From Alphaproteobacteria bacterium (GTDB taxonomy: Bacteria; Pseudomonadota; Alphaproteobacteria; UBA7985): DNA of 64,000 nucleotides. Positions 9,891 through 55,680 of the stretch are shown piece by piece (position 1 is the stretch's first letter; each line of letters opens with the position of its first letter). A program made the translations under genes and the position numbers. Location: contig OZ245893.1 of NCBI GenBank assembly GCA_965229645.1, positions 1,465,383 to 1,529,382 of the forward strand, read 5' to 3'. The notes beneath the pieces are model-generated. The model was not told the origin of the DNA and ran no database searches. It saw only the letters and a program-made list of their open reading frames with translations.

Positions 9891-9964
9891 GAACCGAAAT
9901 CTCGGTATGATTCTTGAAACTCTTAACGGGCGACGAGTTATCCAGGACAACCCATCAAACATAT

Positions 9965-11602
9965 TTAGTCGTCCGTCAAGAATTCCAAGAGTCATACAGG
10001 GGTTTGGGTTAGCAGTTTTTTCGCTCCATTTTTCTACAAGTTTTTGAATATAGGGGTTTAGAACCTTGTAGCCAACTTTTTGCTTTCCTTCTGAACTGAG
10101 ATGTGATTCGCTCATCTGAACCAAATATAGAGGTCAGATCTATGAGCTCCCCCCGACCCACTCACCTTCATTTCAATCACGATCTTTTCAAGCCACGCCT
10201 GGATAGTTTCATTGACATGAATCATGAACTTGTATTGTTATCTGATCGTATTGATTGGAAGGCTTTGGACGCAAAAGCTGCTGAGAAATTTCCTGCCTCC
10301 AGAGGTCGTAAAGCCCTGCCTACACGCTTTACGCTTGGACTTTTGATCCTGAAGTCCATTGATAACTTAAGTGACGAAAAATTGATCCGCCTTTGGGTGC
10401 AAAACCCCTACTATCGGTACTTCACAGGTGAGGAATTTTTTCAACACAAGTGTCCCCACCAACGCGCGAATCTATCTCATATACGAAGCCGCAGGGGCGA
10501 AGACCTAGAAGGGCTTTTGACTGAGAGTTTGTGTGTTGCAATCGATAGTGGCGCTCTTGATCCAAGTACCTTGAACGAGGTCTCGGTGGATACAACGGTA
10601 ATGGAAAAGAACATCACTTATCCCACCGATGCAAAGTTAATGGTTCGCGCGATAACCGCGATTGCTGAGTTGTGCAAAGACAAGGAAATCAAGCAGCGCC
10701 AAACCTATGAAAAGGTCATCAAGACAGCCCATGTGCGGGTCAATCGCTATGCGCATGCGCGCTAGCTTAAACGTATGAAACGGCAATTGAAGTTCATCCA
10801 TACCCGCTTGGAGCGTGTAATCAGGGAGGTATAGCGCAAGACAGAGGGCCAACCTCTGCTGCAGGAGGCCTTTGCCGATGTCCTTTTTAAGGCCAAGCTC
10901 ATTCAGATTGAGTGCGATCCGAGACGAAAGTCGAACAAGGGTCGAAAGATGTACTCCTGGCATGCGACTGAAGTTGAATGCATCGGCAAAGGCAAGGCAC
11001 ATAAGCGTTTTGAGTTTGGTGTTAAGGTTTCGATTGTCATTCCGAATTCTTTATCTCCTGGAGGAACCTTTGTGTTAGACAGCCAGGCCCTACATGGCAA
11101 ACCTCATGACGGAAAAACCCTGAAGGCGGCTATGGAGAGAACACAGGAGAGGATTGATGCTCAAATCCAGGGTATCTTTGTAGACAAGGGTTATCGAGGT
11201 CATGGTTTGACGGGTGTAAAACAATTTAAAATCTATCACGACGGTCAAAAATCTTTGGATAAGGCGTTGCGCGCTAAAGTTAAGCGACGAGCAGCAATCG
11301 AACCTGTGATTGGGCATCTGAAAGAAGATGGACCTATGGGACGGAATTATCTCGCAGGTGAGACGGGAGACAAGATCAACGCTATCATGGCAGCGGTTGG
11401 TTACAACTTCAGACAAATGCTCAATTGGTTGAGGATTCTTTGTGTCCGAATTTGGGTTCAAATTAGAGTCTCATATATAATCAATTTGACCAAATCTGTC
11501 CCTCATTTGCGTCAGATCAGCAATTGCTCCTTTGGCCGAACGACGGTGAAAATGAAATCTTGCATCGTCGCGCTATAAACTGAATTCTTGACGGACGACT
11601 AA
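9965..11602 (+). mobile_element. IS5/IS1182-family insertion sequence (inactive)
   Basis: Perfect 21-bp terminal inverted repeats ttagtcgtccgtcaagaattc (9965-9985) and gaattcttgacggacgactaa (11582-11602) enclose the transposase frame. No clear target duplication. Confidence 0.75.
10142..11578 (+). pseudogene. IS5/IS1182-family transposase with two in-frame amber codons
   Basis: A single frame with a DUF772-like N-part and a DDE C-part (FVDKGYRG, IEPVIGHLK). It is interrupted by TAG at 10763-10765 and 10832-10834. Track ORFs 10103-10765 and 10949-11578 are in the same frame. Confidence 0.8.
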
Positions 11603-11800
11603 CTAGTAACGTCGCCCGACCACTAGAGAAACGCCCATCGCTGTCCTCCATCATCCGAAAGGTTATATCAGCTCTTTGGCCTGGCAGCAGCTTACCATCT
11701 TCGTCAATTCGTGTGTTGTCTATGCCATATCTTGTCGCCGACTCTCCGTTGGCGGGATCGCGCCAATCGATTGCCAACATATCGTCTAGTATTGAGGGGT

Positions 11801-11980
11801 TTACAACTCGGCTCCCGAACGGTCAATCCAAGACTCGAATGAGTTTTGGAGCAGGACAGGAAGCTCCGCAATTACCACATCTGGGATCACATATGTGACG
11901 CCCTCTGTTGGGAGTCCCCTAAACCCCAACTGCCAAAAATCGCTTAACGCGCCTGCATCAAGATAAATTTCTCTTGCCAT
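11801..11980 (-). CDS. 59-aa hypothetical protein with a PIN-like/LDxGA N-terminal unit
   Basis: Below the track cutoff. ATG 11980 abuts the stop of the upstream ORF. MAREIYLDAGALSDFWQLGF..VIPDVVIAEL shows the same pattern as the 71-aa cassette protein. TAA at 11801. Confidence 0.35.
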   Translation of the reverse strand: MAREIYLDAGALSDFWQLGFRGLPTEGVTYVIPDVVIAELPVLLQNSFESWIDRSGAEL

Positions 11981-12202
11981 TTAACCTTCATCTTTCACAA
12001 AATCTTCGTTTCTTACTATGCATATCATTTCGCCCAAGGAAATTTCTGGATTTTCTCGCAAAGCCTTGTAAAGTAATGATTCAACTTTAACAAACACCGC
12101 ACTATGCATTAGCTGCTGCGCTTCATACTCTGTTTTGTAAAGCACGGACCTTTGTCGCTCATTCTCAATTAGAGCAATAGACCTTAATTCTTCATCTGAC
12201 AT
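11981..12202 (-). CDS. 73-aa hypothetical protein (antitoxin-like position)
   Basis: Track ORF, acidic and helical. Its stop TAA is immediately followed by the ATG of the 59-aa ORF. Confidence 0.4.
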   Translation of the reverse strand: MSDEELRSIALIENERQRSVLYKTEYEAQQLMHSAVFVKVESLLYKALRENPEISLGEMICIVRNEDFVKDEG

Positions 12203-12217
12203 TAATTTAATAATCTG

Positions 12218-12379
12218 TTAATCCCACCTTCCCAAAAACTCTAACCTCGATATTTCTGATTTCAAAATATTCTGAATATACTTACTAATTATGCTCAGTG
12301 GCAAAGCGATACGGCTCCAATCATCTCTATTTCGGGGGAATAAATAGGGTCTAAGGTCGTAAGATTTATGGATATTCAT
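12218..12379 (-). CDS. 53-aa hypothetical ORF
   Basis: MNIHKSYDLRPYLF... The ATG lies 2 nt after the stop of the 98-aa gene. Tight operon packing is the only support. Confidence 0.2.
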   Translation of the reverse strand: MNIHKSYDLRPYLFPRNRDDWSRIALPLSIISKYIQNILKSEISRLEFLGRWD

Positions 12380-12381
12380 TT

Positions 12382-12678
12382 CTAATTCCCTTGGTCAACC
12401 TGTAGGCCGTCAAGGGCTAACCCATATGTCGTTAGAATTATGGTAAAGTGAGCTCCTTGACCAGAGTCAGGATCGATATCCACACCATTAGCCAGTCTGT
12501 TTATTTTTGCGGCTTCTTGGAACCAAAAACGGTGATATGCATCCTTGGCCCTAAGAGCCAGGAGGTCATATGCCAGATATAAGTTCTGACCTGATTTATA
12601 TATAAACTCTATATAATCAAGGTCTTTTTGGGTTAGATTTGTAATACTCTTTTTTAGTCTCCTGAATTTACTTTCCAA
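12382..12678 (-). CDS. 98-aa hypothetical protein
   Basis: Track ORF (TTG start). Overlaps the 3' end of the upstream gene by 25 nt. No recognisable domain. Confidence 0.4.
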   Translation of the reverse strand: MESKFRRLKKSITNLTQKDLDYIEFIYKSGQNLYLAYDLLALRAKDAYHRFWFQEAAKINRLANGVDIDPDSGQGAHFTIILTTYGLALDGLQVDQGN

Positions 12679-13493
12679 CTGCTTGATAGAATAAAGACAT
12701 CTTCGACCATTCTATCCATTAACTGCCTTCGGCCCACTGTTGGATCAAATAAGGGGAAACTCAAAAAATAGGCAAAATCCTCCTCTGGCAACCACACCCA
12801 ACCACTACACCCACGACCCTCAGCGCATCGCAAATTCTGATGATACAAAATACTTAGAACAGAGTCTGTGGTGTAGGTTAGCGTCCCATAACGACGAAAC
12901 CGCTGAGCTACATCGCTGGACTCACTGTTGGGTAGCCCTGGCCACAGTATGTGAAATCGAACAATAAACTCATTGGATGCGGGCCGGGGCAAACCAGCTT
13001 CACAAAGTTGCGGCGCAGGCTCAAACTTAGTGTTACGTTCAACATATCTCCGAGAGGGATGCCAAAATGAAAATTCTTTTGATCCCAAATCTCTGGTTTG
13101 AATACTCGGATCATATAGCCCAGTTGCAATATTAAAACCTGTAAAGTGAGATATTTTGGCAGATCTAGCCAAATGTTCCATAGGATCGGCAGCATCTATA
13201 GGGGGATCTAAATACCATGGGTTAAAGTAACCGTAAGGAATTTCAAACCATACCCCCTTATACCAGTATGGCGATAAGACATCCAACCTAGGCCCTGGCC
13301 TAACAGGTTCATTGGTTACGCTAGTCAAATACTGAAAAGTACGTTCAATTCGAGGACTATCTTCTGATGCCCAGTCGGGACAAGGCTCAGAATACGCCAT
13401 GTTCAAAGCCAGTGCCGCGTTCAGTACACTAGCAGCAATCATCCTAATGATCCTGGACTGGATATGAAAATTAGTCTGCATCAAAATACACAA
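12654..13493 (-). CDS. Secreted hypothetical protein (cargo of cassette head a)
   Basis: 279-codon ORF with TTG at 13493 and ATG alternatives at 13481 and 13442. Signal-like segment MIAASVLNAALALNMAYS. The mature part is W/Y/P-rich with no recognisable domain. Confidence 0.55.
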   Translation of the reverse strand: MCILMQTNFHIQSRIIRMIAASVLNAALALNMAYSEPCPDWASEDSPRIERTFQYLTSVTNEPVRPGPRLDVLSPYWYKGVWFEIPYGYFNPWYLDPPIDAADPMEHLARSAKISHFTGFNIATGLYDPSIQTRDLGSKEFSFWHPSRRYVERNTKFEPAPQLCEAGLPRPASNEFIVRFHILWPGLPNSESSDVAQRFRRYGTLTYTTDSVLSILYHQNLRCAEGRGCSGWVWLPEEDFAYFLSFPLFDPTVGRRQLMDRMVEDVFILSSSWKVNSGD

Positions 13494-13671
13494 CCATCAA
13501 CTTCTTAGGACGGTTGTGCCCAAATCTCGAGGCCTGACTACACACTAGCCCTGCGACTTGCCGCATAAGAACGATGGGCCAACGCAACACGCTTCACCCA
13601 CTCCCTCGAGTGTTCTGAAACCTATTCATACGCCTAAGCGTAAACCTTCGACTGGTAAGGTCAACGACATT

Positions 13672-13701
13672 TGTGTAACAAGAGGCCTCAGCATAAGTCA
13701 A
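13672..13701 (-). promoter_or_regulatory. Cassette head box a (sigma70-like TTGACT-N18-TACACA)
   Basis: One of six copies of a conserved 30-nt box. About 75 nt downstream lie GGGAG and the GTG (13590) of the conserved VLRWPIVL start. Confidence 0.35.
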
Positions 13702-13877
13702 GGGGTTGAAAAATAGTTGCAAAATGTAGTATCTAACTCGCTTGCGTGAAACTATAGGCCCGCTTCATAACTAGTTGATTTTTCTAATTTTCTTTGCGCT
13801 CGCGCAACCTTCCTAGCTATGTATGTATCATGAAGGTTCTTAAGGTCGGGTGCAATAAGTTCTGAGCCTGCCTTGCT

Positions 13878-14205
13878 TCAAGTTAAGAAGTGGTTTTCAT
13901 TGCGGCTTGTCCATCGACTCAACGGCAAGGTTGATTGCCTGCAAATCTCGCTGGGTCTCACCGCTCCCCATAAGCTGACCATCCGTCCCAATGTCATCCA
14001 GATTAGTAGAATCTGTGCCAGCAGATGCAATGACAAGGAGGTTGTCCTTTCCTGGATGGAATGAGCGCCTTGTAAGGCCCGTTTCACCTGTAAAAATTCC
14101 GCGGAGGGGGAATAGGCAGTCCACCATCTTTGAATCTAGGTATGTTTCAGAATGCAAAGACTCACAGTCGCTGGAGACATTTGGGCTATCTTCATAGCAT
14201 CTCAT
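13878..14205 (-). pseudogene. Lipase_3-like fragment fused to the last codons of the T1SS domain
   Basis: The N-part (LLVIASAGTDSTNLDD..QRDLQAINLAVESM) ends before the GHSLGG elbow. It is joined to ...NENHFLT* (13878-13898). This is an internal-deletion derivative of 16187-16918. Confidence 0.7.
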
Positions 14206-14314
14206 TTAGCTGCTTTTTTCTCTTGACACTTATGATCCAATTCTTCTTCATAAGACAAATTCGCCAAATCCGCAAACAAACCATACTCTTCCACCTCATA
14301 TTTATCAGCTCCGC

Positions 14315-14875
14315 TCACAACAGTTTCACCAATTCAAGTTCGTCTATTACTCCAATACGATCGGAATTTTCTATTACCCTCCAACTCCAATTTCCCTTGC
14401 GCTCATCTCCGAAATTAGGTGTGCGCCAAATTGAATTGCCATTTACATACACCGCAAATAGACCACTTAAGGTCGCCGTCTCCTGGAATATGGACGACTT
14501 TGAATTGAAACTAGGAAAAAGTGGAGGGAAAAAAAATGGATGAGGTCCTCTACGAGCTAAAGTGAATCTAGAATATCGTTCTGAACCAACTATGTCGTCT
14601 GAATCCACTCTAAAACATATCTGGTAAGGATAAATAGTTAAAAACTTCTTGATCCCACAATAATGATACCCAACACCTCGAGTTTCATAATCTTCCTGTG
14701 ACTTCTCTATCATCCAGTCAGTTTTTGCTAGCAATTCTTGGTCTAGTGTCCATGGAACAAAAATGTCTCTAGCTATCCAAGAAACAGCTTGGTCCCCTAT
14801 CGCCAAAGATGATAAGGTCAATCCCAAGATACGTCCCCAAGACCTTCTTTCCTGGTTAAACTCTATTGCGCTCAT
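14315..14875 (-). CDS. 186-aa single-pass membrane protein (cassette gene)
   Basis: N-terminal TM segment WGRILGLTLSSLAIGDQAVSWIA. ATGA overlap with the upstream gene. Paralogue at 16915-17475. Confidence 0.6.
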   Translation of the reverse strand: MSAIEFNQERRSWGRILGLTLSSLAIGDQAVSWIARDIFVPWTLDQELLAKTDWMIEKSQEDYETRGVGYHYCGIKKFLTIYPYQICFRVDSDDIVGSERYSRFTLARRGPHPFFFPPLFPSFNSKSSIFQETATLSGLFAVYVNGNSIWRTPNFGDERKGNWSWRVIENSDRIGVIDELELVKLL

Positions 14876-15087
14876 AGCAGCTCATCCAATTCAATTTGAG
14901 CTATACCTAATAACCCCACCATCTGATTATTGCCATAACTCTCAGGTTTAAAATCCCTCAATATTTCATCATAGACTTGTCGAGTTATTACAACTTTAGC
15001 GTCACCCAAAATTAGCATGTCAAGGCCACCTGGCGTCTGCATTACGCTATATGCAGCGCCTGTATCTAGAACATTAACTTGCGACAT
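14872..15087 (-). CDS. 71-aa protein equal to the stand-alone N-module (LDTGA module) of the 168-codon cassette gene
   Basis: VNVLDTGAAYSVMQTPGGLDML..VVITRQVYDEI..SYGNNQ aligns with GLVLDTGAAFSLVKTLGGLDIL..GVIIWQIYCEV..SYSENQ of 41127-41633. TAATG and ATGA couplings to the neighbouring genes. Confidence 0.55.
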   Translation of the reverse strand: MSQVNVLDTGAAYSVMQTPGGLDMLILGDAKVVITRQVYDEILRDFKPESYGNNQMVGLLGIAQIELDELL

Positions 15088-15533
15088 TATTCATCTCCTA
15101 CAACAGATGGATTCAGCATAATTTCGGCCTTTATCTTAACAAGATTCTTAGGAATAAGGCCAATGTATGTCTTATAGGCTAAGGAGTCGACTCCCTGAAG
15201 TGCAGATATTGTATCCCCCAAGTTATTGACTTCAGAATAATAGTTTTGAAAATTTCCTGTCTCTTCCAAGCATTCCCAGGGATACTCTTCGTCATCTATA
15301 GCTTCCATGTCGTTTTGACGAAGATAATTTTCTCTTTCGGTTCCTTTTCTTGCACAATCTAAGATATCTGGCTCATTGAGAACCCAAAAGAAATAGGGCA
15401 GAACATCATCAATATGCTTAGTAGCTCCTGCGCCATGCCACACTCGAATCTTGTATATTTCTTTATAGTGCGCTCGCCAATTTTTTGGCGGCTTAAATGC
15501 ACTTAAGCACTCTTCGTATGTATCAGGTAACAT
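15087..15533 (-). CDS. 148-aa acidic cytoplasmic protein (immunity-like partner of the 168-codon gene)
   Basis: Track ORF with AGGGGT upstream. It always lies directly after the 168-codon gene. Paralogues at 17579-18025 and 40660-41106, and a fragment at 36304-36414. Confidence 0.65.
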   Translation of the reverse strand: MLPDTYEECLSAFKPPKNWRAHYKEIYKIRVWHGAGATKHIDDVLPYFFWVLNEPDILDCARKGTERENYLRQNDMEAIDDEEYPWECLEETGNFQNYYSEVNNLGDTISALQGVDSLAYKTYIGLIPKNLVKIKAEIMLNPSVVGDE

Positions 15534-15553
15534 TTGTTAACTACCCCTCAAGG

Positions 15554-16060
15554 TCAATAAATCTGATAAGCCAGATCGGAATTCTCAAAAACAAATCCAG
15601 CCGAAGCACCAATAGCTTTTAAATTTCCTGGTCCACCATACTTCTCATGATCGGGTCAGTTCACCAAACCTCTATCATCCAAAACAATATTAATTGTATC
15701 GTTATTGCTTAAGCCAGATGCCTCTGGTTTGTTCACAACAATAGGTATAGATGTATCACCCAGCTGATTTCCAGATGCAAACATGTTATGGTGTGCTTGA
15801 GTCATGTCGAAACCTGAGTCGATAAAACTTGACGAATTGGAATCGCACCAATTCTTACGCCTAAGTTGATTATCACTATAACTTCCTGGCGACAAATCTT
15901 CCATGACTTCATGCTAAATCTACTGGGTTATTACAACTCTTGACCTACTAGTTGTCCGCATATCCGACCTGACCCAGGTCTTCTCTAAGCTAAATGCTGG
16001 GCCAGCATCCAAAACTAGCCTTGCATCTTCACGCATGAGAACAAAAGACCTACGCAGCAC
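15554..16060 (-). pseudogene. 168-codon cassette gene, copy 1 (nonsense-disrupted)
   Basis: Exactly 507 nt, like the intact copy. TAG at codons 47 and 49, and TGA replacing a Trp codon at 15656-15658. Track ORF 15656-15904 is its middle part. Confidence 0.75.
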
Positions 16061-16143
16061 GGCTCTCTCATCTCCTTTGAGTGTCTTCAGACCCAATTGA
16101 TCACCACTTCATAAGCGCCCTATCTGTTGGGGCCAACGGCATC

Positions 16144-16173
16144 TTTGTAACAAGAGACTTCAATATAAGTCAA
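16144..16173 (-). promoter_or_regulatory. Cassette head box b (TTGACT-N18-TACAAA)
   Basis: Same 30-nt box, starting 14 nt downstream of the stop of the 243-aa gene. AGGAG plus GTG 16060 follow. Confidence 0.35.
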
Positions 16174-16186
16174 AGAATTGAACACT

Positions 16187-16918
16187 TCAAGTTAAGAAGT
16201 GGTTTTCGTTGAGGCCGTGTCCCTTACCTAAAATACGGACTTGGAAGTCGCTGCCTTTGATCCATATCTCTGTCTCATCATTGGTCTCGGTGATGATCAG
16301 GTCGGCGAAGCTGACGCCCAGCTCTGATAGATCAATACGATCTTCTGCGCTGTCGAAGTCCCCGATAACGTCGATCCACTCAGCAATACTATCATCAAAC
16401 GACTCACCCAAACGTTGAGACACGACCTGGGACAGAAAGCCACCCAGAGAATGCCCTGTAATGACAATCTCAAGATCACTGCCTGCTCTACCATCTGCAG
16501 ACAGCATTTTCATGGACTCAACAGCAAAGTTGATTGCCTGCAAATCTTGCTGGGTCGCACCAAAGTTCCAAAGCTGGGCATCCGTCACAAGATCATCCAG
16601 ATCAGTGGGATCTGTGCCAGCAAATGCAATGACAAGGCGATTGTCATTTTCTGAATAGAAAGAGTGCCCTGTGAAACCCGTTCCACCTCTAAGCGCTCCA
16701 TAGGCGGGGAATAGCCAATCCATGTACTTTGAATCTAGGTCTGTATCAAAATGCAAAGATTCATAATCGGTAGAGACATTTTGGCTATTTGCGTAACGTC
16801 TCATATAATTATTTAGCTTCTTTTGAAACTCCACATCCGACTTTTCTTCGTAGGACAAATTCGCTAAGTCCGCGAACAAGCCATACTCTTCTGCACTATA
16901 TTTGTCAGGTTCGCTCAT
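16187..16918 (-). CDS. Chimeric protein: truncated class-3 lipase/alpha-beta hydrolase N-part fused to the T1SS C-terminal domain
   Basis: Residues 1-170 are Lipase_3-like with the elbow ITGHSLGG, but no downstream Asp/His region. By eye, residues 171-243 (16187-16393) are the same nucleotide sequence as 18679-18885, the 3' end of the giant gene. Confidence 0.75.
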   Translation of the reverse strand: MSEPDKYSAEEYGLFADLANLSYEEKSDVEFQKKLNNYMRRYANSQNVSTDYESLHFDTDLDSKYMDWLFPAYGALRGGTGFTGHSFYSENDNRLVIAFAGTDPTDLDDLVTDAQLWNFGATQQDLQAINFAVESMKMLSADGRAGSDLEIVITGHSLGGFLSQVVSQRLGESFDDSIAEWIDVIGDFDSAEDRIDLSELGVSFADLIITETNDETEIWIKGSDFQVRILGKGHGLNENHFLT

Positions 16919-17475
16919 AACAATTTCTCCAATTCAAGTTCATCTATTACCCTAATACGATCAGAATTTTCCATTACCCTCCAACTCCAATTTTCATTGC
17001 GCTCTTCTCCGAAATCAAGTGTGCGCCAAATTGAATTTCCATTTACATACACCGCAAATCGATCACTTAAGAGCGCCGTTTCCTGGAATATGGACGATCT
17101 TGAATTAAAACTAGGAAAAAGTGGAGGGAAAAAAAATGGATAAGGTCCCCTGTGAGCTAAAGTGTATCTGGAGTATCTTTCTGAGCCAACTATATCGTCC
17201 GAACTTGCTCTAAAACATATCTGATGAGGATAAATAATCAGAAATCTCTTGATTTCACAATAATAATACCTAAAATCACGAGCCTCATAATCTTCCTGTG
17301 ATTTCTCTATCATCCAATCAGCTTTTGCCAACACTTCTTGATTGAGCGTCCATGGAACAAAAATGTCTCGCGCTATCCAAGTAACAGCTTGGTCCGCTAT
17401 CGTCAAAAAAACTAGCGACAATCCCAAGATTTGCCCCCAAGGTCTTCTCCTTTGGTCAATTTCTATCATGCCCAT
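16915..17475 (-). CDS. 186-aa single-pass membrane protein, copy 2
   Basis: Paralogue of 14315-14875. ATGA overlaps with both neighbours. Confidence 0.6.
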   Translation of the reverse strand: MGMIEIDQRRRPWGQILGLSLVFLTIADQAVTWIARDIFVPWTLNQEVLAKADWMIEKSQEDYEARDFRYYYCEIKRFLIIYPHQICFRASSDDIVGSERYSRYTLAHRGPYPFFFPPLFPSFNSRSSIFQETALLSDRFAVYVNGNSIWRTLDFGEERNENWSWRVMENSDRIRVIDELELEKLL

Positions 17476-17579
17476 AGCAACTTGTCCATCTCAAGTTCAG
17501 CTATGATTGGAATCTCACCATCTGGCGTCTGCATTAAGCTATATGCAGCGCCTGTATCTAGAACATTAACTTGCGACAT
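17466..17579 (-). pseudogene. Internal-deletion (37-codon) version of the 71-aa gene
   Basis: MSQVNVLDTGAAYSLMQTPDGEIPIIAELEMDKLLWA*. Keeps the TAATG and ATGA couplings. Confidence 0.5.
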
Positions 17580-18025
17580 TATTCATCTCCTACAACAGAT
17601 GGATTCAGCATAATTCTGGCCCTTATCTTAGCAAGATTCTTAGGAATAAGGCCGATGTATGTCTTATAGGCTAAGGACTCGACTCCCTGAAGCGCAGATA
17701 TTGTATTGCCCAAGTTATTGACCTCAGAATAATAGTTTTGAAACCTTCCTGTCTCTTCCAAGCATTCCCAGGGATACTCTTCGTCATCTATAGGTTCCAT
17801 GTCGTTTTGACGAAGATAGTTTCCTCGTTCGGTTCCTTTTCTTGCACAATCTAAGATATCGGGTTCATTGAGAACCCAAAAGAAATAGGGTAGAACATCA
17901 TCAATATGCTTGGTAGTTTCTTCGCCACGCCACACTCGAATTCTATATATTTCTTCATAGTGCGCTCGCCAATTTTTTGGCGACTTAAAAGCACTTAAGC
18001 ACTCTTCGTATGTATCACATAACAT
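17579..18025 (-). CDS. 148-aa immunity-like protein, copy 2
   Basis: Paralogue of 15087-15533, roughly 90% aa identity by eye. Confidence 0.65.
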   Translation of the reverse strand: MLCDTYEECLSAFKSPKNWRAHYEEIYRIRVWRGEETTKHIDDVLPYFFWVLNEPDILDCARKGTERGNYLRQNDMEPIDDEEYPWECLEETGRFQNYYSEVNNLGNTISALQGVESLAYKTYIGLIPKNLAKIRARIMLNPSVVGDE

Positions 18026-18045
18026 TTGTTAACTACCCCTTAAGG

Positions 18046-18552
18046 TCAATAAATCTGATAAGCCAGATCGGAATTCTCAAAAACAAATCCAATCGAAGCA
18101 CCACTAGCTGTTAAGTTCCCTGGTCCGCCATACTTCTTATGATCGGGCCAGTTCACCAAACCTCTATCATCCGAAACAATATTGATTGTATCTGTAGTAC
18201 TTAAGCCAAATGCCTCTGGTTTTTTCACAACAATAGATATAGATGTATCGCCCAGCTGATTTCCAGATGCAAACCTGTTATGGTGCGCTTGATTTATGTC
18301 CAAATTTGAATCGATAACACTTGGCTAATTGGGGTCATACCAATTCTTAAGCCTAAGTTGATTATCACTATAATTTCCTGGCGACAAATCTTCCATGACT
18401 TCATACTAAATCTACTGGGTTATTACAACTCTTGACCCGCTAGCTGTCCACATATCCGACCTGACCCAGGCCTTCTCTAAGCTAAATGCTGGGCCAGCAT
18501 CCAAAACTAGCCTTGCATCTTCACGCATGAGAACAAAAGACCTACGCAGCAC
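18046..18552 (-). pseudogene. 168-codon cassette gene, copy 2 (nonsense-disrupted)
   Basis: 507 nt. TAG at codons 47 and 49, plus a third TAG (..WYDPN*PSVID..). Track ORF 18046-18303 is the remaining 3' part. Confidence 0.75.
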
Positions 18553-18635
18553 GGCTACCTCATCTCCTCTGAGTGTTTTCAGACCCAATTGATCGCCACT
18601 TCATAAGCGCCCTATCTGTTGGGGTCAACGACATC

Positions 18636-18665
18636 TTTGTAACAAGAAACTTCAGTATAAGTCAA
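18636..18665 (-). promoter_or_regulatory. Cassette head box c (TTGACT-N18-TACAAA)
   Basis: Same 30-nt box, 14 nt downstream of the giant gene stop. Confidence 0.35.
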
Positions 18666-36414: not shown

Positions 36415-36434
36415 TTGTTTACCACCCCTCAAAG

Positions 36435-36941
36435 TCAATAAATCTGATAAGCCAGATCGGAATTCTCAAAAATAAATCCAATCGAAGCACCACTAGCTGT
36501 TAAGTTCCCTGGTCCACCATACTTATAATGATCGGGCCAGTTCACCAGACCTCTATCATCCGAAACAATATTGATTGTATCTGTATTACTTAAGCCAAAT
36601 GCCTCTGGTTTTTTTACAATAATAGATATAGATGTATCGCCCAGCTGATTTCCAGATGCAAACCTGTTATGGTGTGCTTGAGTCATATCAAAACCTGGAT
36701 CGATAACACTTGACGAATTGGAATCACACCAATTCTTACGCCTAAGTTGATTATCACTATAATTTCCTGGCGACAAATCTTCCATGACTTCATACTAAGT
36801 CTACTGGGTTATTACAACTCTTGACCCACTAGTTGTCCGCATATCCAACCCGATCGGGATCTTCACCAAGCTAATTGCTGGGCCAGCATCTAAAACTAGC
36901 CTTGCATCTTCACGCATGAGACCAAAAGACCTACGCAGCAC
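36435..36941 (-). pseudogene. 168-codon cassette gene, copy 3 (two amber codons; 116-aa ORF intact from Met53)
   Basis: 507 nt with TAG at codons 47 and 49. Track ORF 36435-36785 is uninterrupted. Confidence 0.7.
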
Positions 36942-37000
36942 GGCTCACTCATCTCCCCTGAGTGGTTTGAAACCCATTTATTCATTAATTGGTAAGCGCC

Positions 37001-37357
37001 CTATCTGTTAGGGTCAATGGCATCTTTGTAACAAGAGACTTCAGCACAAGTCATGGCAATGTCTAAACCACTAGTTCGAATCCACAACCTAGCCCCTCCC
37101 GCACTAGGGAAGAGATCAATAAATTCATCTGAATTGTTTTTGAAGTGCTCCAATATCGCATCTTTCTCGGCCAGAGTATATGCGTTTATACCTGAAGCAT
37201 CTATTGGGCCACCCGCACCTGCAATTACTGACTGATCTACACCATTGTACAGCATCGTTGTGCCAGGCGGCCTACCAGAAAATGCACCATTTGCTATAGC
37301 TAACTCTAGGTCTTGTAGAGTATTTATTTGACTCCAATCTATAACGAAATTTTCCAA
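37001..37357 (-). CDS. Orphan paralogue of the giant-gene N-terminus (118 aa)
   Basis: TTG start with GGAGG 10 nt upstream. TTMLYNGV/NSMFYSGI, IDASGINAY/RDASGIYAN and DEFIDLF/AEYMDRA align with the reconstructed giant N-terminus. The 3' end runs into degenerate head box e (37025-37054). Confidence 0.55.
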   Translation of the reverse strand: MENFVIDWSQINTLQDLELAIANGAFSGRPPGTTMLYNGVDQSVIAGAGGPIDASGINAYTLAEKDAILEHFKNNSDEFIDLFPSAGGARLWIRTSGLDIAMTCAEVSCYKDAIDPNR

Positions 37358-37511
37358 TTTGATTACCCTCCCATCCCCAAGTAAGACTTGGCATCTTCAG
37401 TAAAAGCACTGCTCGCATCCATTTGCTTCTCATCTATCCCAAAACCAAATTCGCCAAATAAGTCGGGAATAAGATCACTCATTTCCAAAGTAACATCTGA
37501 GGGCGGAAGGC

Positions 37512-37991
37512 TTATCCGCTCGCCACGCCAATAGTCTGCCCAGCTAACGCCCTGAAAAAAACCGTTTTCGCTAAAGCCTTTCTTACCAACCGATTATTAG
37601 TTCTGACTTCTGCACCTACAGAGTTTTGGGAATAAACCTTCTGGTCATATATAGGCAGGGAGAAATAGCCAATCTTAAATCTGTCCTTCTCCAAAACTCC
37701 TGAAGCCTCGGGCGATGCAGGATGTGTAAACTTCGAATGAAAATCTAAAGTTGTAAAGCTCATCACATGTGAAAAATAGCGAAAAATAAAACTCAGAGGA
37801 CACTCTCCAAATATCGGAGATCTCATCTCAATAAAAACTTCATCCAAATTAGTTCGTATGGACATGACACTATCGAAATCTGCCCAATCTCCTTCAAGCC
37901 AATAAAAAAAACTCTCTCCATTCAAAGCTTCTAAAACGCGTCTGGGAAGTTCTCTGGAATACTCTATCTTTTTTACTGTTTTCTCTGTCAT
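37512..37991 (-). CDS. 159-aa hypothetical protein
   Basis: Track ORF with no TM and no recognisable domain. Preceded by a partial copy of the cassette upstream region. Confidence 0.5.
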   Translation of the reverse strand: MTEKTVKKIEYSRELPRRVLEALNGESFFYWLEGDWADFDSVMSIRTNLDEVFIEMRSPIFGECPLSFIFRYFSHVMSFTTLDFHSKFTHPASPEASGVLEKDRFKIGYFSLPIYDQKVYSQNSVGAEVRTNNRLVRKALAKTVFFRALAGQTIGVASG

Positions 37992-38149
37992 TTTGCAATC
38001 TCCGTTGCTCTACTTACCGTTAACGATACACGAAATCAATGCAAAATATTAGTTTTCCTAATTTTTTTTCTGCGCTCGACCAACTTTCGTGATTATGTAT
38101 CATGAAGGCTCTTAAGGTCGGGTGCCATAGGTTTTGATCCTGCCTTGCT

Positions 38150-38647
38150 CTAAGTTAAGAAGTGGTTTTCGTTGAGGCCGTGTCCCTTACTTAAAATACG
38201 GACTTGGAAGTCGCTGCCTTTGATCCATATCTCTGTCTCATCATTGGTCTCGGTGATGATCAGGTCGGCGAAGCTGACGCCCAGCTCTGATAGATCGATA
38301 CGATCTTCTGCGCTGTCGAAATCCCCAATAACGTCGATCCACTCAGCAATACTATCGTCAAGGGCATTAAACTTGAACGTATCTGCGCCCGCGCCACCGT
38401 AAAGAAGATCTGCGCCCGCGCCCCCAATCAGCAAATCGTTGCTGTCGCCGCCGAAGAGCTGGTCGGCGCCCAGGCCACCATAGAGCTCGTCCGCCCCTTG
38501 ATCACCATGGAGAATATCATTCTTGGTGCCGCCATTTAAGGTATCATTGCCCTCGCCACCACGAAGCAAGTCTTTGCCTGCATCGCCATGGAGAAGGTCA
38601 TCCTCTGCGCCGCCGTCCAGCATGTCTTCGCCGTGGCCACCTTTGAG
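38150..38647 (-). pseudogene. Orphan 3' fragment of the giant RTX gene (last 166 codons incl. T1SS domain)
   Basis: Near-identical to 18679-19176, with two aa differences seen. The 5' side is cut by IS1380. Confidence 0.85.
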
Positions 38648-40470
38648 CCTGCCTTATTCATGAAGATGGCAAATTTTGGAACGAGATCGGGTTTAGGCGG
38701 GGTTTTGAGGCAGGATGCGTTGGAGATTTTGAGCATCGAACGATTTGTTGAGGGCCCTGGGGGCACTACGGCGTAAATTTGGGAACAGGATCGAGTATCT
38801 GGGGTGTTTTTTGCTTCTTTGGCGCAGAGGTGATGGGTCGCCAGATCATCGAGGAGGGCGGCAAGGTTTTCAGGACAGTCTATTTTGCGCTCTGATTTTA
38901 TGGTGGTGGCCATGCCATGCGGTTGATGGCTGGCCATATCAGGCTCCAAAAGTGCTGTGCACTTTGGGCAACGATTAGGATTGCGCGGCGAGCATGGATG
39001 GTTATGCGGGCGCCGATTGAGAGCACGCGTTCACGATAGCGGCGCAAGCTCCAGCCAGTGCGCGTAGCGGTTTCCATACACCGTCGACCAGCGTGCATCA
39101 GACCATAAGCCAGCAGATTGAGTAACAGAAGGGCTTCGTTACGGGCGAAGGCCTCAGCCTCAGCCTTGGTCTCAACCTCAGCCTTGGTCTCAGCCTCAGC
39201 TTCGGGCTTGGATGGGGAGGACGGGGAGGAGCCTTTGGTGTCCTTCCTGGTCCGCACTGTCGATGACAGGGTCGGGCCCAGCACGTCCATCAACTCACCG
39301 AAGCTGTTTTCGGCTGCGCCACGTTTGCGGTAAAGCGCCAGCAGGTCCTGGGCAGGCATATGATCTTGTGTGAAGTTGGTGATCAGCCAGAAGCGATCCA
39401 GCAACAACTGGCCTGGCCGCTCGACGACAACCAGAACAACCCGCCGCGCCTTCGACCATGGCCCCGCCTGATAATCCATCTCGTGAAACTGCTCCCCGCC
39501 ATCTTCTGGTGGGCATCCTTCTGGACGATTCATATTTGGGGCCGCTAGTCGGTCTAGGACTGAGTTGCTGCCTAGCCGCGCCACGTAGGAGATGCCGCGC
39601 TCCTCAAGTCCGCCCAGCACCTTCTCACACGGAAAGCCCGCATCCATGCGCACCGTCGCTACCTGACACAGCTTCGTCTTCGCCCGATCAATCAGCTCCA
39701 GAATGAAGCTGAGCGCTCCGTCGGCGGTGTGGACACTGCCCTTGCGAAGCCGTGCGTCCAGCAAATCTCCAGTCTCGGCAATGCCAGCAATGATCGGGTG
39801 ATACATGCGTTGACGATAGTGCCCGTTCCAAGCTGAACCAGGCTGCTTGCCATGCACCTCGATGGGCAGACTGTCCACATCAAGGGTCAGATATCGAGGG
39901 CGGTGTCCCCGACGCTCGGCCCGCAGGCGACGGCCAGTCAGTTCCATCACGCTCTCGCGTAAGACCTGAAGGTTGGATTCGCTGGAGAGCAAATCAAGCA
40001 ACCGCGACAAGGTAGGTTGCGAGGGCAGATGGCGCTCTTGGTCCAGAGGCGTCGTGCTGCGCCTGCACGAAGTTGACAGCCGAAACGCCGGATCATAGCG
40101 TAGCGCATCAGCATCGTCTTGATCTCGCCAACCCTGACCCAAAAGCAGAACCCTCGTTCGCAAGAGTTCAGGCAAAGAGTAGATCACCTGGTGGGGACAG
40201 CGCGTATCCTCAAGCCGAGCCATCAGCCACGAGATGATACCTGAGCGCTCCATCAACTCGCGCTGCACAATGGCACCGCCGTCTCCGCTCAGATGCTCGG
40301 CCCGGCTCTCAACAGAAAGACTCCGGTTGAATGATGTTGTGAATAGAGGTAGTGTTTCACCCATGGCGTGGCTCGGTCCTGTTTATCGCGTCTATCGCTA
40401 AAGACTTGATTCTACAGTGTTTTCCGCGTCACGCCATACAAATCAACCGATCAGACGCGAATAAGAGGGG
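38648..40470 (-). mobile_element. IS1380-family insertion sequence
   Basis: 1823 bp. IRs cctgccttattc / cccctcttattc (rc). 5-bp duplication TTGAG at 38643-38647 and 40471-40475. High G+C, unlike its surroundings. Confidence 0.8.
38898..40364 (-). CDS. IS1380-family DDE transposase
   Basis: 488 aa. The overall pattern matches the IS1380/IS4-like group (VRMDAGF, RGAAENSFGELM). Confidence 0.8.
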   Translation of the reverse strand: MGETLPLFTTSFNRSLSVESRAEHLSGDGGAIVQRELMERSGIISWLMARLEDTRCPHQVIYSLPELLRTRVLLLGQGWRDQDDADALRYDPAFRLSTSCRRSTTPLDQERHLPSQPTLSRLLDLLSSESNLQVLRESVMELTGRRLRAERRGHRPRYLTLDVDSLPIEVHGKQPGSAWNGHYRQRMYHPIIAGIAETGDLLDARLRKGSVHTADGALSFILELIDRAKTKLCQVATVRMDAGFPCEKVLGGLEERGISYVARLGSNSVLDRLAAPNMNRPEGCPPEDGGEQFHEMDYQAGPWSKARRVVLVVVERPGQLLLDRFWLITNFTQDHMPAQDLLALYRKRGAAENSFGELMDVLGPTLSSTVRTRKDTKGSSPSSPSKPEAEAETKAEVETKAEAEAFARNEALLLLNLLAYGLMHAGRRCMETATRTGWSLRRYRERVLSIGARITIHARRAILIVAQSAQHFWSLIWPAINRMAWPPP

Positions 40471-40475
40471 TTGAG

Positions 40476-40660
40476 GGTATCTGCACCGTGCTGACCACAA
40501 ATCTGGTCGTTTCCCCGACCACCGCCAATGATGTCACCATTGGTGCCGCCATCAATATAGTCATCGCCAGCACCACCGTCGAGCAAATCGGTTCAAGGCC
40601 ACCTGGCGTCTGCATTAAACTATATTCAGCGCCTGTATCTAGAACATTAACTTGCGACAT
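40476..40660 (-). pseudogene. RTX-repeat fragment fused out of frame to the first 23 codons of a 71-aa-type gene
   Basis: 40476-40590 continues the orphan RTX fragment across the IS. At ~40590 it joins MSQVNVLDTGAEYSLMQTPGGLE (ATG 40660). Confidence 0.65.
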
Positions 40661-41106
40661 TATTCATCTCCTACAACAGATGTATTCAGCATAATTCTGG
40701 CCCTTATCTTAACAAGATTCTTAGGAATAAGGCCAATGTATGTCTTATAGGCTAAGGAGTCGACTCCCTGAAGCGCAGATATTGTATTGCCCAAGTTATT
40801 GACTTCAGAATAATAGTTTTGAAAATTTCCTGTCTCTCGTAAGCATTCCCAGGGGTATTCTTCGTCGTCTATAGGTTCCATGTCGTTTTGACGAAGATAA
40901 TTATCTCGCTCGGTTCCTTTTCTTGCACAATCTAAGATGTCTGGCTCATTGAGAGCCCAAAAGAAATAGGGTAGAACATCATCAATGTGCTTGGTAGTTT
41001 CTTCGCCACACCACACTCGAATTCTATATATTTCTTTATAGTGCGCTCGCCAATTTTTTGGCGGCTTAAAAGCACTTAAGCACTCTTCGTATGTATCAGG
41101 TAACAT
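40660..41106 (-). CDS. 148-aa immunity-like protein, copy 4
   Basis: Paralogue of 15087-15533. Follows the only intact 168-codon gene. Confidence 0.65.
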   Translation of the reverse strand: MLPDTYEECLSAFKPPKNWRAHYKEIYRIRVWCGEETTKHIDDVLPYFFWALNEPDILDCARKGTERDNYLRQNDMEPIDDEEYPWECLRETGNFQNYYSEVNNLGNTISALQGVDSLAYKTYIGLIPKNLVKIRARIMLNTSVVGDE

Positions 41107-41126
41107 TTGTTAACCACCCCTCAAAG

Positions 41127-41633
41127 TCAATAAATCTGATAAGCCAGATCGGAATTCTCAAAAACAAATCCAATCGAAGCGCCACCAGTTTGTAAATTTC
41201 CTGGTCCACCATACTTCTGATGAACGAGCCAGGTCACCAAACCTCTATCATTCGAAACAATATTGATTGTATCTGTATTACTTAAGCTAAATGCCTCTGG
41301 CTTTTTCACAACAATAGATATAGATGTATCGCCCAGTTGATTTCCAGATGCAAACCTGTTATGGTTTGCTTGAGTCATGTCGAAACCTGCGTCGATAAAA
41401 CTTGACGAATTGGGGTCATAACAATTCCTAAATCTAAGTTGATTCTCACTATAACTTCCCGAAACCGAATCCTCCATGACTTCACAGTAAATCTGCCAGA
41501 TGATTACACCTCCGGACCCACCAGATGTCAGTATATCCAACCCGCCAAGGGTTTTCACTAAGCTAAACGCCGCACCAGTATCCAAAACGAGTCCTGCTTC
41601 TTGGGGCTTGAGAACGATGGGCCAACGCAACAC
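41127..41633 (-). CDS. 168-aa cassette protein, only uninterrupted copy (candidate small toxin/effector)
   Basis: GTG 41633 with AGGAG upstream. The N-module is VLDTGAAFSLVKTLGGLDIL..GGVIIWQIYCEV. The C-part is ANHNRFASGNQLGDTS..GGPGNL..IGFVFENSDLAYQIY. No family I can name. Confidence 0.6.
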   Translation of the reverse strand: MLRWPIVLKPQEAGLVLDTGAAFSLVKTLGGLDILTSGGSGGVIIWQIYCEVMEDSVSGSYSENQLRFRNCYDPNSSSFIDAGFDMTQANHNRFASGNQLGDTSISIVVKKPEAFSLSNTDTINIVSNDRGLVTWLVHQKYGGPGNLQTGGASIGFVFENSDLAYQIY

Positions 41634-41715
41634 GGTTCACCCACTCCTCTGAGCGTCTTGAAACCTCTTCATTCACCAATTGCGTAAGATCCTAACTGGT
41701 GAAGTCAACGACATT

Positions 41716-41745
41716 TTTGTAACGGGAAACCTCAGCATAAGTCAA
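41716..41745 (-). promoter_or_regulatory. Cassette head box f (TTGACT-N18-TACAAA)
   Basis: rc = ttgacttatgctgaggtttcccgttacaaa, about 80 nt upstream of GTG 41633. Confidence 0.35.
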
Positions 41746-42100
41746 AGAATTGAGAACTGGTTATAAATGGAGGATCTGTTTCGGGCGCATAGCACCATAG
41801 ACCTACCTCATAGTTGGTTCATTTTTCTGACTTCCTTTGTGTTCGCTCAATTTTTTTTGGTTATGTATGTATCATACGAACTCTAAAAGTCCTCAGAAAG
41901 CAACTTCGATAGTTTTACTGCTTCCCTGGAATCAGATTATCTGTTTTTGAGTAACTTGTTTTAGAAAGAACCATGACATAACAAAGATATCTATAGTGAT
42001 AGTCAACTGCAGAAACCGCCAGTTACCCTTGTTTTGGGGATCTGACATATCAAGGTGCTTCGTGCGAGGCGCCGACAAAGAGATCGTAAAATCAACCACC

Positions 42101-55646: not shown

Positions 55647-55680
55647 GAGACTCCCGTCCTTCCAATCAAACCGTAGGGCT

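Follow-up and report, generated by a model that had tools for sequence, protein, structure and literature searches.

We analysed a stretch of 64,000 nucleotides from an alphaproteobacterium (lineage UBA7985; assembly GCA_965229645.1, contig OZ245893.1, positions 1,465,383 to 1,529,382 of the forward strand), hereafter the window, whose positions are counted from its first letter. It contains a 32-kb island of low G+C content (~9.9–42.1 kb) between flanks of 58–64% G+C. The island is occupied by a giant RTX gene, four copies of a 168-codon gene with 148-aa partner genes, two copies of a pair encoding a 186-aa transmembrane protein and a lipase-like product, displaced copies of the 3' end of the giant gene, and seven copies or fragments of insertion sequences (IS). 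As the initial annotation of this DNA had noted, every island open reading frame (ORF) outside the IS lies on the minus strand (ORF listing). The same annotation described an abrupt drop from ~60% to ~40% G+C at ~9.89 kb and a recovery at 42.1 kb; the low-G+C island is real, but its composition is uneven, at 41–60% by segment (41–48% in the small-gene parts, 51–59% in the body of the RTX gene and 55–60% in the IS66 and IS4-like stretches).

A giant RTX gene interrupted by two insertion sequences

The giant gene (18679..31285, minus strand) comprises ~3,390 codons after removal of two IS, and in this genome it is a pseudogene. It had been described as one giant RTX/Hint gene; the RTX repeats and Hint motifs are present, but the gene is broken by the two IS and starts farther upstream than assumed. 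An ISAs1-family element (29927..31119, plus strand) with a 10-bp target duplication, TACTGAAGCC, is inserted between codons 55 and 56. Its removal joins 55 extra codons (31285..31120) in frame to an ORF with an apparent start at 29917, and the true start is the ATG at 31285, which overlaps the stop codon of an upstream 228-aa gene (ATGA). A sister-strain contig (L005) carries the junction uninterrupted, free of ISAs1 and with the identical start MTDFNLYDL... The second insertion, an IS110-family element (25303..26470, minus strand, ends approximate; transposase 25320..26291), lies in the RTX part. Residue numbers of the giant protein given below are those of the reconstructed sequence, with both IS taken out.

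From its N-terminus, the reconstructed protein is composed of an ADP-ribosyl cyclase (ARC)-like domain (aa 1–~175, encoded at 31285–31120 and 29916–~29560, minus strand, and split by the ISAs1 element), a hydrophobic glycine-zipper segment long enough for about two membrane spans (aa 320–375; ~29125–28960, minus strand) and a Hint/BIL autoprotease domain (aa 508–672; 28561–28069, minus strand). The Hint match falls below the Pfam gathering score (E=2.5e-5), and Cys1 (CFPHD), TPGH and the terminal VHN are all in place. After a non-repeat region the RTX repeats start at aa 1048; Pfam HemolysinCabind matches 49 stretches within 18679..25353 (E=4.5e-225) and recurs in the upstream piece (E=1.2e-23). 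Discoidin (F5/8 type C) and HpiC1/CBM-like domains were also detected by Pfam, and the C-terminal ~70 residues match Peptidase_M10_C, the serralysin C-terminal region (E=6e-10). A word-indexed homology search with the 984 non-RTX residues gave no match, and a metagenome scan with the C-terminal 91 residues returned generic RTX ends only, at ≤60% identity, and no other carrier of this particular C-terminal end.

An N-terminal ARC-like toxin domain and its upstream gene

When residues 1–184 of the giant protein were compared with all Protein Data Bank (PDB) sequences by phmmer, the top two matches were 9RO8 (E=0.0014) and 9OUF (E=0.0047), and the next, unrelated match had E=0.4. The first is the ARC toxin domain (ARCtox) of the Pantoea ananatis type VI secretion system (T6SS) PAAR toxin PANA_2924; the second is Tac1, a toxin of the type VII secretion system (T7SS) that kills through NAD(P)+ depletion. 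The Aplysia ADP-ribosyl cyclase aligns colinearly over residues 35–171 (E=1.8). In Tac1, Glu573 is essential and corresponds to E226 of CD38. E134 of the giant protein (DELPRIL) aligns with this residue (iELPRL) as well as with the Glu of ARCtox (vELPRL).

A tblastn search of plasmids with the giant N-terminus yielded three weak matches only, two of which fall on proteins that have a sub-threshold Pfam Rib_hydrolase match of their own (from Massilia and Gloeothece); the pairwise comparison with the Massilia protein reaches E=5e-8. Aligned together, the three proteins share the motifs F(Y/W)SG, ASGxV and ELPxLxxNxxVT, and E134 is invariant. The F(Y/W)SG motif lies within the 55 codons upstream of ISAs1 and thus supports the new start. 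Judged from these sequence comparisons, the first ~175 residues of the giant protein very probably form an ARC toxin domain, that is, a CD38-like ADP-ribosyl cyclase.

The Massilia protein deserves mention in its own right. At 62590–63644 of the Massilia sp. H6 plasmid NZ_CP103373.1 (L169 3767–4821), the gene for this 247-aa 'hypothetical protein', which matches ADP-ribosyl cyclase below threshold, stands before an annotated Imm74 gene (Pfam E=8e-20). Imm74 has been named as the main Tox-ARC immunity protein, and the two genes look like an unannotated Tox-ARC toxin/immunity pair.

In the window, the position next to the ARC-like domain is taken by the 228-aa gene (31282..31968, minus strand), whose product matches no known family. 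Even at an E-value cut-off of 10 Pfam returns nothing for it, and it is not Imm74; we consider the gene a candidate immunity gene for the ARC domain. Upstream of it, 32008..32527 (minus strand) holds a conserved leader and a degenerate 5' half of a 168-codon-type gene (remnant 32008–32279).

A PIN-like gene family with linked partners

Four colinear 507-nt copies of the 168-codon gene had been reported as exact-length paralogues. All four exist, but three are pseudogenes with in-frame stops (three in copy A, three in B and two in C, two of them at shared positions), and only copy D is intact. A 148-aa gene follows each of them, as claimed earlier: self-comparison shows three full copies and one cut by ISAs1. 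Copy D (41127..41633) has its intact partner at 40660..41106. Module C (36304..36941) consists of a pseudogene (36435..36941) and the first 37 codons of the 148-aa gene, truncated by the second ISAs1 copy. Junction module B (17579..18678), directly after the stop of the giant gene, comprises a leader, a pseudogene (18046..18552) and an intact 148-aa gene (17579..18025), and junction module A (15026..16186) likewise comprises a leader, a pseudogene (15554..16060) and an intact 148-aa gene (15087..15533). All four modules are on the minus strand. A further partial copy of the 168-codon gene is a 16-codon stub at ~13544–13590.

Ahead of every 168-codon copy, and also of the 228-aa gene and a 279-aa gene near the left border, stands a conserved leader of ~180 nt with an invariant promoter-like core (TTGACTTAT.CTG...GTTACAAA). 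In a promoter scan, the module A and module B leaders contained predicted sites; the overall count was no higher than in shuffled sequence.

Relatives of this family are scarce. An HMMER scan of 1.84 billion representatives with the 168-aa protein gave seven matches only, mostly sister-strain fragments; the distant homologues are P0004 (297 aa) and, through a profile search, P0008 (182 aa). The N-termini of P0008 and P0004 have sub-threshold matches to the Pfam PIN family PF20698 (E=0.0011 and 0.013, respectively). Using an AlphaFold model of P0008 (pLDDT 73, pTM 0.71) as a Foldseek query, we obtained top matches that were almost all PIN domains (VapC, Rrp44, SMG6, PAE2754; probability 0.99, TM-score 0.4–0.5, E from 4e-3). 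The acidic residues D18, E51, D101 and D127 of copy D align with D9, E41, D92 and D115 of P0008, the last two pairs by eye. The model of the window's own 168-aa protein (pLDDT 46) was too poor for use. On the strength of the P0008 model, the family is predicted to be a divergent PIN-like nuclease. It falls under the Pfam PIN threshold, and the 148–169-aa partners contain no known domain. A word-indexed homology search with the 168- and 148-aa sequences concatenated gave no match, PIN-like profile scans of a genome collection and of metagenomes found no loci, and PDB profile searches with the PIN-like alignments returned nothing relevant.

At the end of each complete 148-aa gene in the window, a second PIN-like ORF (o71 type; 49% identity to the N-terminus of the 168-aa protein) starts, and this ORF is truncated everywhere. 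The same order, a 150–169-aa partner followed by a PIN-like gene, occurs in two unrelated loci (L002 and L006), in one of them (L002) directly behind an RTX-like gene; their partners show weak similarity to the 148-aa protein (BLASTP E=0.004; hhalign E=7.5e-4, probability 25%). Where the initial annotation had paired each 168-codon gene with the 148-aa gene behind it, this recurring order indicates that the real pairing is probably that of the 148-aa gene with the downstream PIN stub, instead of or besides the proposed one. In either case the 148-aa protein is a candidate immunity protein or antitoxin for PIN-like proteins. The ratio of nonsynonymous to synonymous substitution rates (dN/dS) is 0.25–0.35 among the 148-aa copies (n=3), 0.23 between the 186-aa copies and 0.5–0.9 among the 168-aa copies, exceeding 1 in the N-terminal part of the 168-aa pseudogene copies.

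The two unrelated loci have features of their own. L002 (1–4161) and L003, from JGI metagenomes 3300082554/5, encode an RTX-like protein ending in ...DPLVLDLDGDGIETV..., then a 150-aa gene, then P0004, the 297-aa PIN-like protein, which has a glycine-zipper tail. Both contigs end at the identical base, 94 nt past the PIN-like gene, as if at a repeat edge, and their G+C content (45.5%) is near that of the island. Homology of the P0004 tail to the hydrophobic segment of the giant protein was considered and rejected, being not significant after composition correction. In L006 (198–1270; GCA_965188405.1, CBCZDS010000101.1), a stand-alone 169-aa gene and the gene for P0008 adjoin cspA, infA and maf; this pair is the only family member found in an NCBI assembly.

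Lipase-like units and displaced RTX 3' ends

The two pairs of a transmembrane protein and a lipase reported earlier were both recovered, but the lipase part is truncated in each. In unit B (16187..17475, minus strand), the 186-aa gene (186B, 16915..17475) overlaps the start of a 243-aa chimera, in which lipase-like residues 1–172 are joined in frame to the last 71 RTX codons (16189–16398). The lipase part stops 12 residues past GHSLGG, so that the catalytic Asp and His are absent; its Pfam matches cover positions 59–84 of 140 in Lipase_3 and 55–146 of 220 in DUF6792. Unit A (13779..15087, minus strand) comprises a 71-aa o71 stub (14872..15087), the second 186-aa gene (186A, 14315..14875) and a 102-aa lipase stub (13897..14205), which runs on into the final ~29 nt of the RTX gene and its type-2 downstream sequence (13779–13906). 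In both units the 186-aa gene runs into the start of a lipase-like gene with GHSLGG. One N-terminal hydrophobic segment of 186B lies above the cut-off, that of 186A below it. Searching plasmids by tblastn with the lipase stub gave no match.

Displaced copies of the giant gene's 3' end, already pointed out in the initial annotation, were confirmed at 38152–38647 (97.8% identical), 40471–40590 (92.5%), 16189–16398 (98.1%) and 13878–13906 (last ~29 nt). The first two are parts of one orphan copy of the last ~203 codons (38150..40590, minus strand; 38150–38647 and 40471–40590) that an IS4-like element has split. It is fused to the first ~22 codons of an o71-type PIN-like gene (40591..40660, minus strand), which begins at the stop of the 148-aa gene of copy D. 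Three junctions thus connect a cargo stub to the RTX end: o71 PIN codon ~22 to the last ~203 codons, lipase B codon 172 to the last 71, and lipase A codon ~136 to the last ~9. At the PIN-stub/RTX junction, which contig L007 shows free of IS, the two parts are out of frame.

Adjacent segments of units A and B differ in their divergence: the RTX end is 97.6–98.1% identical, the leader with the 168- and 148-aa genes ~93%, and the o71, 186-aa and lipase segment ~80%, with a dS of 0.5 for the 186-aa genes. A single recent duplication would have produced uniform divergence and is disfavoured by these steps. The 2,492-nt tandem repeat unit starts exactly at the lipase/RTX junction.

Upstream genes are tightly coupled to the cargo that follows. 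Start and stop codons overlap between the 228-aa gene and the giant gene, between the 148-aa gene and the PIN stub, and between the 186-aa gene and the lipase, and in contig L007 a 209-aa gene stops 5 nt ahead of a 118-aa ORF. In the window the latter two correspond to a frameshifted 159-aa ORF (37512..37991, minus strand), a possible immunity-type gene with marginal similarity to the 228-aa gene (159/209 aa vs 228 aa, shuffle p ~0.01), and to the 118-aa ORF itself (37001..37357, minus strand), which runs into a conserved leader and is possibly the stub of another N-terminal cargo. The initial annotation had taken 37001–37357 for an orphan copy of the giant gene's N-terminal end. This was not supported: BLASTP found nothing, shuffling gave p ~0.015–0.04, and hhalign against the ARC profile gave a probability of 0.2%. 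We also rejected the ORF as an ARC stub (a profile including it lost all PDB matches) and as an internally deleted giant gene ending at the RTX stop (DNA similarity begins only at the leader core). The 148-, 186-, 228-, 159/209-, 118- and 279-aa proteins have no match in Pfam, NCBIfam or PADLOC.

Variation among sister strains

Exact-protein look-ups retrieved three sister-strain contigs from ENA assembly ERZ25074195 and one from ERZ25074182. Their islands occupy the identical chromosomal site and differ in structure, with units gained, lost and reshuffled between strains, in agreement with the module shuffling expected from the initial annotation. Contig L004 carries three units, compared with two in the window, and a 250-aa variant ORF (P0003, 2013–2765), in which a C-terminal half of 168 type, carrying a deletion, is combined with ~130 residues unique to it where the 148-aa gene would stand, and with a tail derived from an o71 stub; it represents a further type of module. 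In L005, ISAs1 sits inside copy D of the 168-codon gene and A-type sequence follows the adjacent 148-aa gene; in L007 the RTX orphan is uninterrupted, the 159-aa ORF has its 209-aa form and extra modules are present. ORFs of 155 and 177 aa that match no known family lie in L005 (9305–10361) and L007 (16886–17942); the window has neither. The ERZ25074182 strain (L001, 11194–12565) carries an IS256-type element (Transposase_mut) in place of window positions 9944–10106 at the left border; apart from this, the two strains share 99.6% identity across the 9.9 kb left of the island.

The nearest species representative is an uncultured alphaproteobacterial metagenome-assembled genome whose IspB is 88% identical. 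Synteny downstream of ispB is kept; the region upstream is unrelated DNA of normal G+C content in which the island is absent, and no empty island site could be defined from this comparison.

Mobile elements, borders and flanking genes

IS make up roughly 9 of the island's 32 kb (Pfam and self-comparison) and comprise an IS5-like element, IS110, two ISAs1 copies, an IS30-type fragment, IS66 and an IS4/DDE_Tnp_1_4 element. The two ISAs1 copies are mutually inverted and 97% identical. At the left edge lies the IS5-like element (DUF772/DDE_Tnp_1; 10103..11578, plus strand), the transposase of which is frameshifted. An IS cluster (32602..36307) contains the IS30-type fragment (32602..33300), IS66 with its end cut off (33455..35152) and the second ISAs1 copy (~35111–36307). 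The IS4-like element that splits the orphan RTX 3' copy (38648–40470) encodes a transposase (38898..40364) with an acidic KAEAETKAEVETK repeat (Tandem Repeats Finder, 39153–39200), the length of which varies among strains (L007 13289–15658). Between the IS5-like element and unit A, 11517..13723 (minus strand) holds a further leader copy (F, 13544–13723) and ORFs of 279, 98, 73 and 87 aa that match no known family; the 279-aa ORF has a hydrophobic segment at its N-terminal end.

The flanks are chromosomal housekeeping DNA. To the left lies a sugar ATP-binding cassette (ABC) importer; ispB, leuA, PBP2 and further genes are found on the right. In line with the initial annotation, the 64-kb window contains no tRNA gene, nor any Rfam family, and the flanking genes scanned include none of the ABC, membrane fusion protein (MFP) and TolC genes of a type I secretion system (T1SS), the ABC genes present being sugar and amino-acid importers. 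A perfect 48-nt × 2.9 tandem repeat (42286–42424) marks the right border. It sits within a dispersed REP/MITE-like family of ~200–400 nt (328–529, 42101–42487, 52885–53084, 53959–54168 and 55679–55881), which is also present in the genome of the nearest relative (L008). A second patch of lower G+C content (56000–61800; 47–55%), which may be a further acquired segment, carries genes for a sulfatase, an amino-acid ABC importer (two permeases, ATPase and binding protein) and a class IV aminotransferase.

The island as a proposed collapsed toxin array

The initial annotation described a polymorphic toxin-immunity locus anchored on a T1SS/RTX protein in an IS-riddled island, laid out as a mirror image of the contact-dependent inhibition (CDI), Rhs and MafB systems. 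The present results agree with both parts of this description and with horizontal acquisition of the locus, with an ARC-like N-terminus on the giant protein and PIN and lipase 5' stubs on RTX 3' ends that are 98% identical while the cargo is ~80% identical. We lean, with modest confidence, towards reading the island as an acquired and largely dead interbacterial toxin array of T1SS type, with N-terminal cargo and upstream immunity genes, most of which has collapsed through internal deletions.

In an intact unit, an upstream immunity gene would be followed by a gene for an N-terminal toxin, a membrane-entry segment, Hint, an RTX/lectin stalk and a C-terminal signal. A T1SS encoded elsewhere would export the protein C-terminus first, so that the toxin end would come out last, as a topological counterpart of the C-terminal toxin of CdiA, whose export begins at the N-terminus. 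The lectin-like and RTX parts would bind the target cell, and the Hint domain would release the ARC domain together with the hydrophobic piece, which would then cross the target's inner membrane and deplete NAD(P)+, the 228-aa protein presumably serving as the immunity protein for the ARC toxin. Sister units may have carried PIN-like cargo behind the 148-aa gene and a lipase-like alpha/beta hydrolase behind the 186-aa membrane protein, both on the common RTX C-terminal end, before internal deletion reduced them to an immunity gene, a cargo 5' stub and an RTX 3' stub. The conserved junction repeat between units consists of the RTX 3' end, the promoter-like leader, the stand-alone 168-aa PIN-like gene and the 148-aa gene, and recombination among such repeats, along with seven IS insertions, could shuffle, duplicate and delete units across strains. 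In this genome the main toxin gene has been inactivated, as have three of the four 168-aa PIN genes, and the presumed immunity genes are intact; the survival of intact, constrained 148- and 186-aa genes beside decayed toxins fits orphan immunity.

Several observations weigh against this interpretation. The main gene is disrupted, so nothing functional is present in this genome. The N-terminus in the window has no Pfam or NCBIfam match, its ARC similarity lying under the Pfam threshold, and its first 96 residues alone retrieve no related protein. Library searches assigned none of the 228-, 148-, 186- and 159/209-aa proteins to an immunity family already known. Our searches found no intact PIN–RTX or lipase–RTX gene, which makes the origin of the stubs by internal deletion an inference; the PIN stub and the RTX part are out of frame at their junction, the lipase part has neither Asp nor His, and the lipase/RTX junction, at the edge of the 2,492-nt unit, could be a duplication junction. 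With the T1SS ABC, MFP and TolC genes not found in the 64-kb window, we infer export solely from the RTX repeats and the C-terminal end. Finally, the 168-aa PIN gene is complete and stands alone, and the L006 pair, surrounded by housekeeping genes and without a visible RTX gene, fits an ordinary toxin–antitoxin module.

Alternatively, the island may be a decaying assembly of a large RTX exoprotein or adhesin and VapBC-like toxin–antitoxin modules, in which a 2.5-kb duplication starting by chance inside the RTX 3' end, unequal crossing-over and IS activity made the orphan RTX ends and chimeras as by-products and the small genes have nothing to do with immunity. We consider this unlikely, though by no means negligible. 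The coincidence of the tandem-unit edge with the lipase/RTX junction, the third unit in L004, the three pseudogenes among four 168-aa copies and the seven IS copies or fragments all speak for decay of this kind, as does the classical toxin–antitoxin layout of a PIN fold with a neighbouring partner, seen on its own in L006; discoidin/CBM-like domains are typical of RTX adhesins, and the small genes resemble no known immunity family. What it leaves unexplained is an N-terminal ARC-like domain with the conserved Glu, followed by a hydrophobic segment and Hint. Nor does it predict divergence of 98%, 93% and 80% in adjacent segments, three independent junctions that each place a toxin-type 5' part on an RTX 3' end in one orientation, or four upstream genes that are translationally coupled, or nearly so, to the cargo behind them. 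Because of the ARC result and the stepwise divergence, we downgraded an explanation by duplication junctions alone. It is improbable, too, that the giant protein is a host-directed, anti-eukaryotic exotoxin resembling MARTX toxins, with an NADase effector and with unrelated toxin–antitoxin modules and accessory genes around it. It is a giant T1SS-type RTX protein that combines an enzymatic effector with an autoprocessing domain, ARC toxins poison yeast as well, and discoidin-type lectin domains often bind eukaryotic glycans. However, Pfam detects neither a cysteine protease domain nor MARTX-type N-terminal repeats in any piece of the gene, the effector occupies the extreme N-terminus instead of mid-protein, the ARC toxins most similar to it are antibacterial and accompanied by immunity genes, and the tightly coupled upstream gene and the retained, repeated partner genes fit self-protection.

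The initial annotation went further and spoke of a cassette system with a constant C-terminal end; taken as working exchange, this would make the invariant 3' T1SS domain the recombination handle and the displaced ends stored cassettes that could be swapped onto the main gene. The ~98% identity of the RTX 3' copies beside far more diverged cargo and immunity-like genes, the in-frame lipase/RTX-end fusion kept in several copies and strains, and a module content that varies by strain could all be read in this way. We found no sign of such exchange and regard it as very improbable. The copied piece is the extreme 3' end, stop codon included, and does not adjoin variable cargo; crossovers in it would delete or duplicate units and cannot swap N-terminal cargo. 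No complete alternative cargo lies upstream of the copies: the PIN stubs have 22–71 codons, and the lipase stubs of 136 and 172 codons lack Asp and His. Two of the three junctions are out of frame (among them the PIN/RTX junction) or lose the ORF, and the in-frame one encodes a catalytically incomplete lipase. The main gene is itself inactivated by two IS, and strains differ by unit duplications, deletions and IS insertions, with no new cargo on the main gene, as illustrated by the unchanged MTDFNLYDL... start in L005.

Going beyond the collapsed array that we favour, it is possible, though we hold this only tentatively and rate it below even chance, that the locus is the relic of an undescribed class of T1SS-delivered polymorphic toxins of inverted order, in which an immunity gene precedes a gene for an N-terminal toxin, a membrane-entry segment, Hint, a receptor-binding RTX stalk and a C-terminal signal. 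In such a class, an ARC NADase, a PIN nuclease or a lipase would be interchangeable on a shared scaffold, and the toxin end may stay in the producer until target contact, reminiscent of CdiA secretion arrest.

Comparison with known toxin systems

All parts of the island are already known, namely RTX/T1SS ends, Hint modules, ARC and PIN toxins, and lipase effectors with membrane immunity proteins. As far as the literature searched shows, what would be new is the combination and polarity of these parts: within that literature, the coverage of which is incomplete, we came across no polymorphic toxin delivered by T1SS that has its cargo at the N-terminus and its immunity gene upstream. A 2012 survey assigned polymorphic toxins to type II (T2SS), type V (T5SS), T6SS, T7SS and Photorhabdus virulence cassette (PVC) delivery, listed T1SS only for RTX toxins, and noted that polymorphic toxins had yielded no PIN domains (Zhang et al. 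2012, PMC3482391). The 2025 papers on ARC toxins report PAAR, RHS, FIX, LXG, EsxA, two-partner secretion (TPS), pyocin and other modules, and RTX/T1SS is not among them. Surveys of polymorphic and ARC toxins cover T2SS, type IV secretion, T5SS, T6SS, T7SS and PVC-type delivery, with the toxin always C-terminal. If our reading is correct, T1SS would join the delivery routes of enzymatic interbacterial toxins, screens for a C-terminal toxin with a downstream immunity gene would miss the whole class, and the gain would be three new families of candidate immunity proteins along with a divergent family of PIN-like toxins that has hardly any relatives in databases. The copy in the window is mostly dead, and its value is that of a pointer to an architecture, not of a functioning system.

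MARTX toxins, likewise giant substrates of T1SS, carry RTX repeats and a C-terminal signal, process themselves and exchange their effector modules by recombination; they have a cysteine protease domain, internal effectors, eukaryotic targets and no known immunity genes. The giant protein of the island uses Hint instead of a cysteine protease, and its effector is N-terminal, not internal. Family I.3 lipases and serralysins combine an N-terminal enzyme with a C-terminal RTX/T1SS signal. The island shares this enzyme-then-RTX order and a C-terminal end matching Peptidase_M10_C, but its lipase, unlike those of family I.3, is a class-3/DUF6792-like fragment that is cut after the nucleophile elbow and preceded by a membrane-protein gene. 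The 168/o71/P0008 family resembles VapBC in its PIN-like fold, four conserved acidic residues and tightly linked partner. It differs from VapBC in that the partner (148–169 aa) contains no recognisable DNA-binding antitoxin domain, the family fails the Pfam PIN thresholds, and one member (P0004) has a glycine-zipper tail behind an RTX-like gene.

Caulobacter CdzC/CdzD/CdzI provides T1SS-dependent contact killing by glycine-zipper proteins (PMC5380434). As is proposed for the island, the Cdz agent comes from an alphaproteobacterium, is antibacterial, leaves through a T1SS, contains glycine-zipper segments and is paired with an immunity protein. The Cdz proteins are small aggregating peptides and, unlike the giant protein, are not known to have an enzymatic toxin, Hint or RTX stalk. 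The ARC toxins Tac1 and PANA_2924 share with the giant protein similarity in the catalytic region, the conserved essential Glu and a domain size of ~150–175 residues, and PANA_2924 (T6SS PAAR–TM–ARC) also has hydrophobic helices beside its ARC domain. The known ARC toxins are C-terminal behind PAAR, RHS, LXG, TPS and the like, with no T1SS/RTX link reported; here, moreover, the similarity falls under the Pfam threshold and the neighbouring 228-aa gene is not of the Imm74/Imm63 type, unlike in Tox-ARC.

Parallels in overall layout are offered by CdiA/CdiI, Rhs and MafB. As in these systems, a giant modular exoprotein has an enzymatic toxin at one end and a Hint-type autoprotease, a small gene is linked to the toxin-coding end, and arrays of degraded modules with retained partner genes, reshuffling between strains and foreign composition complete the likeness. 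The modules differ from the orphan cassettes of CDI, Rhs and MafB loci in that they consist of the far 3' end and truncated cargo, so that no complete toxin adjoins the handle for in-frame replacement. The polarity is also reversed relative to all three systems: the toxin of the island is N-terminal (aa 1–~175), the presumed immunity gene lies upstream, and the constant part is the C-terminal RTX/T1SS end.

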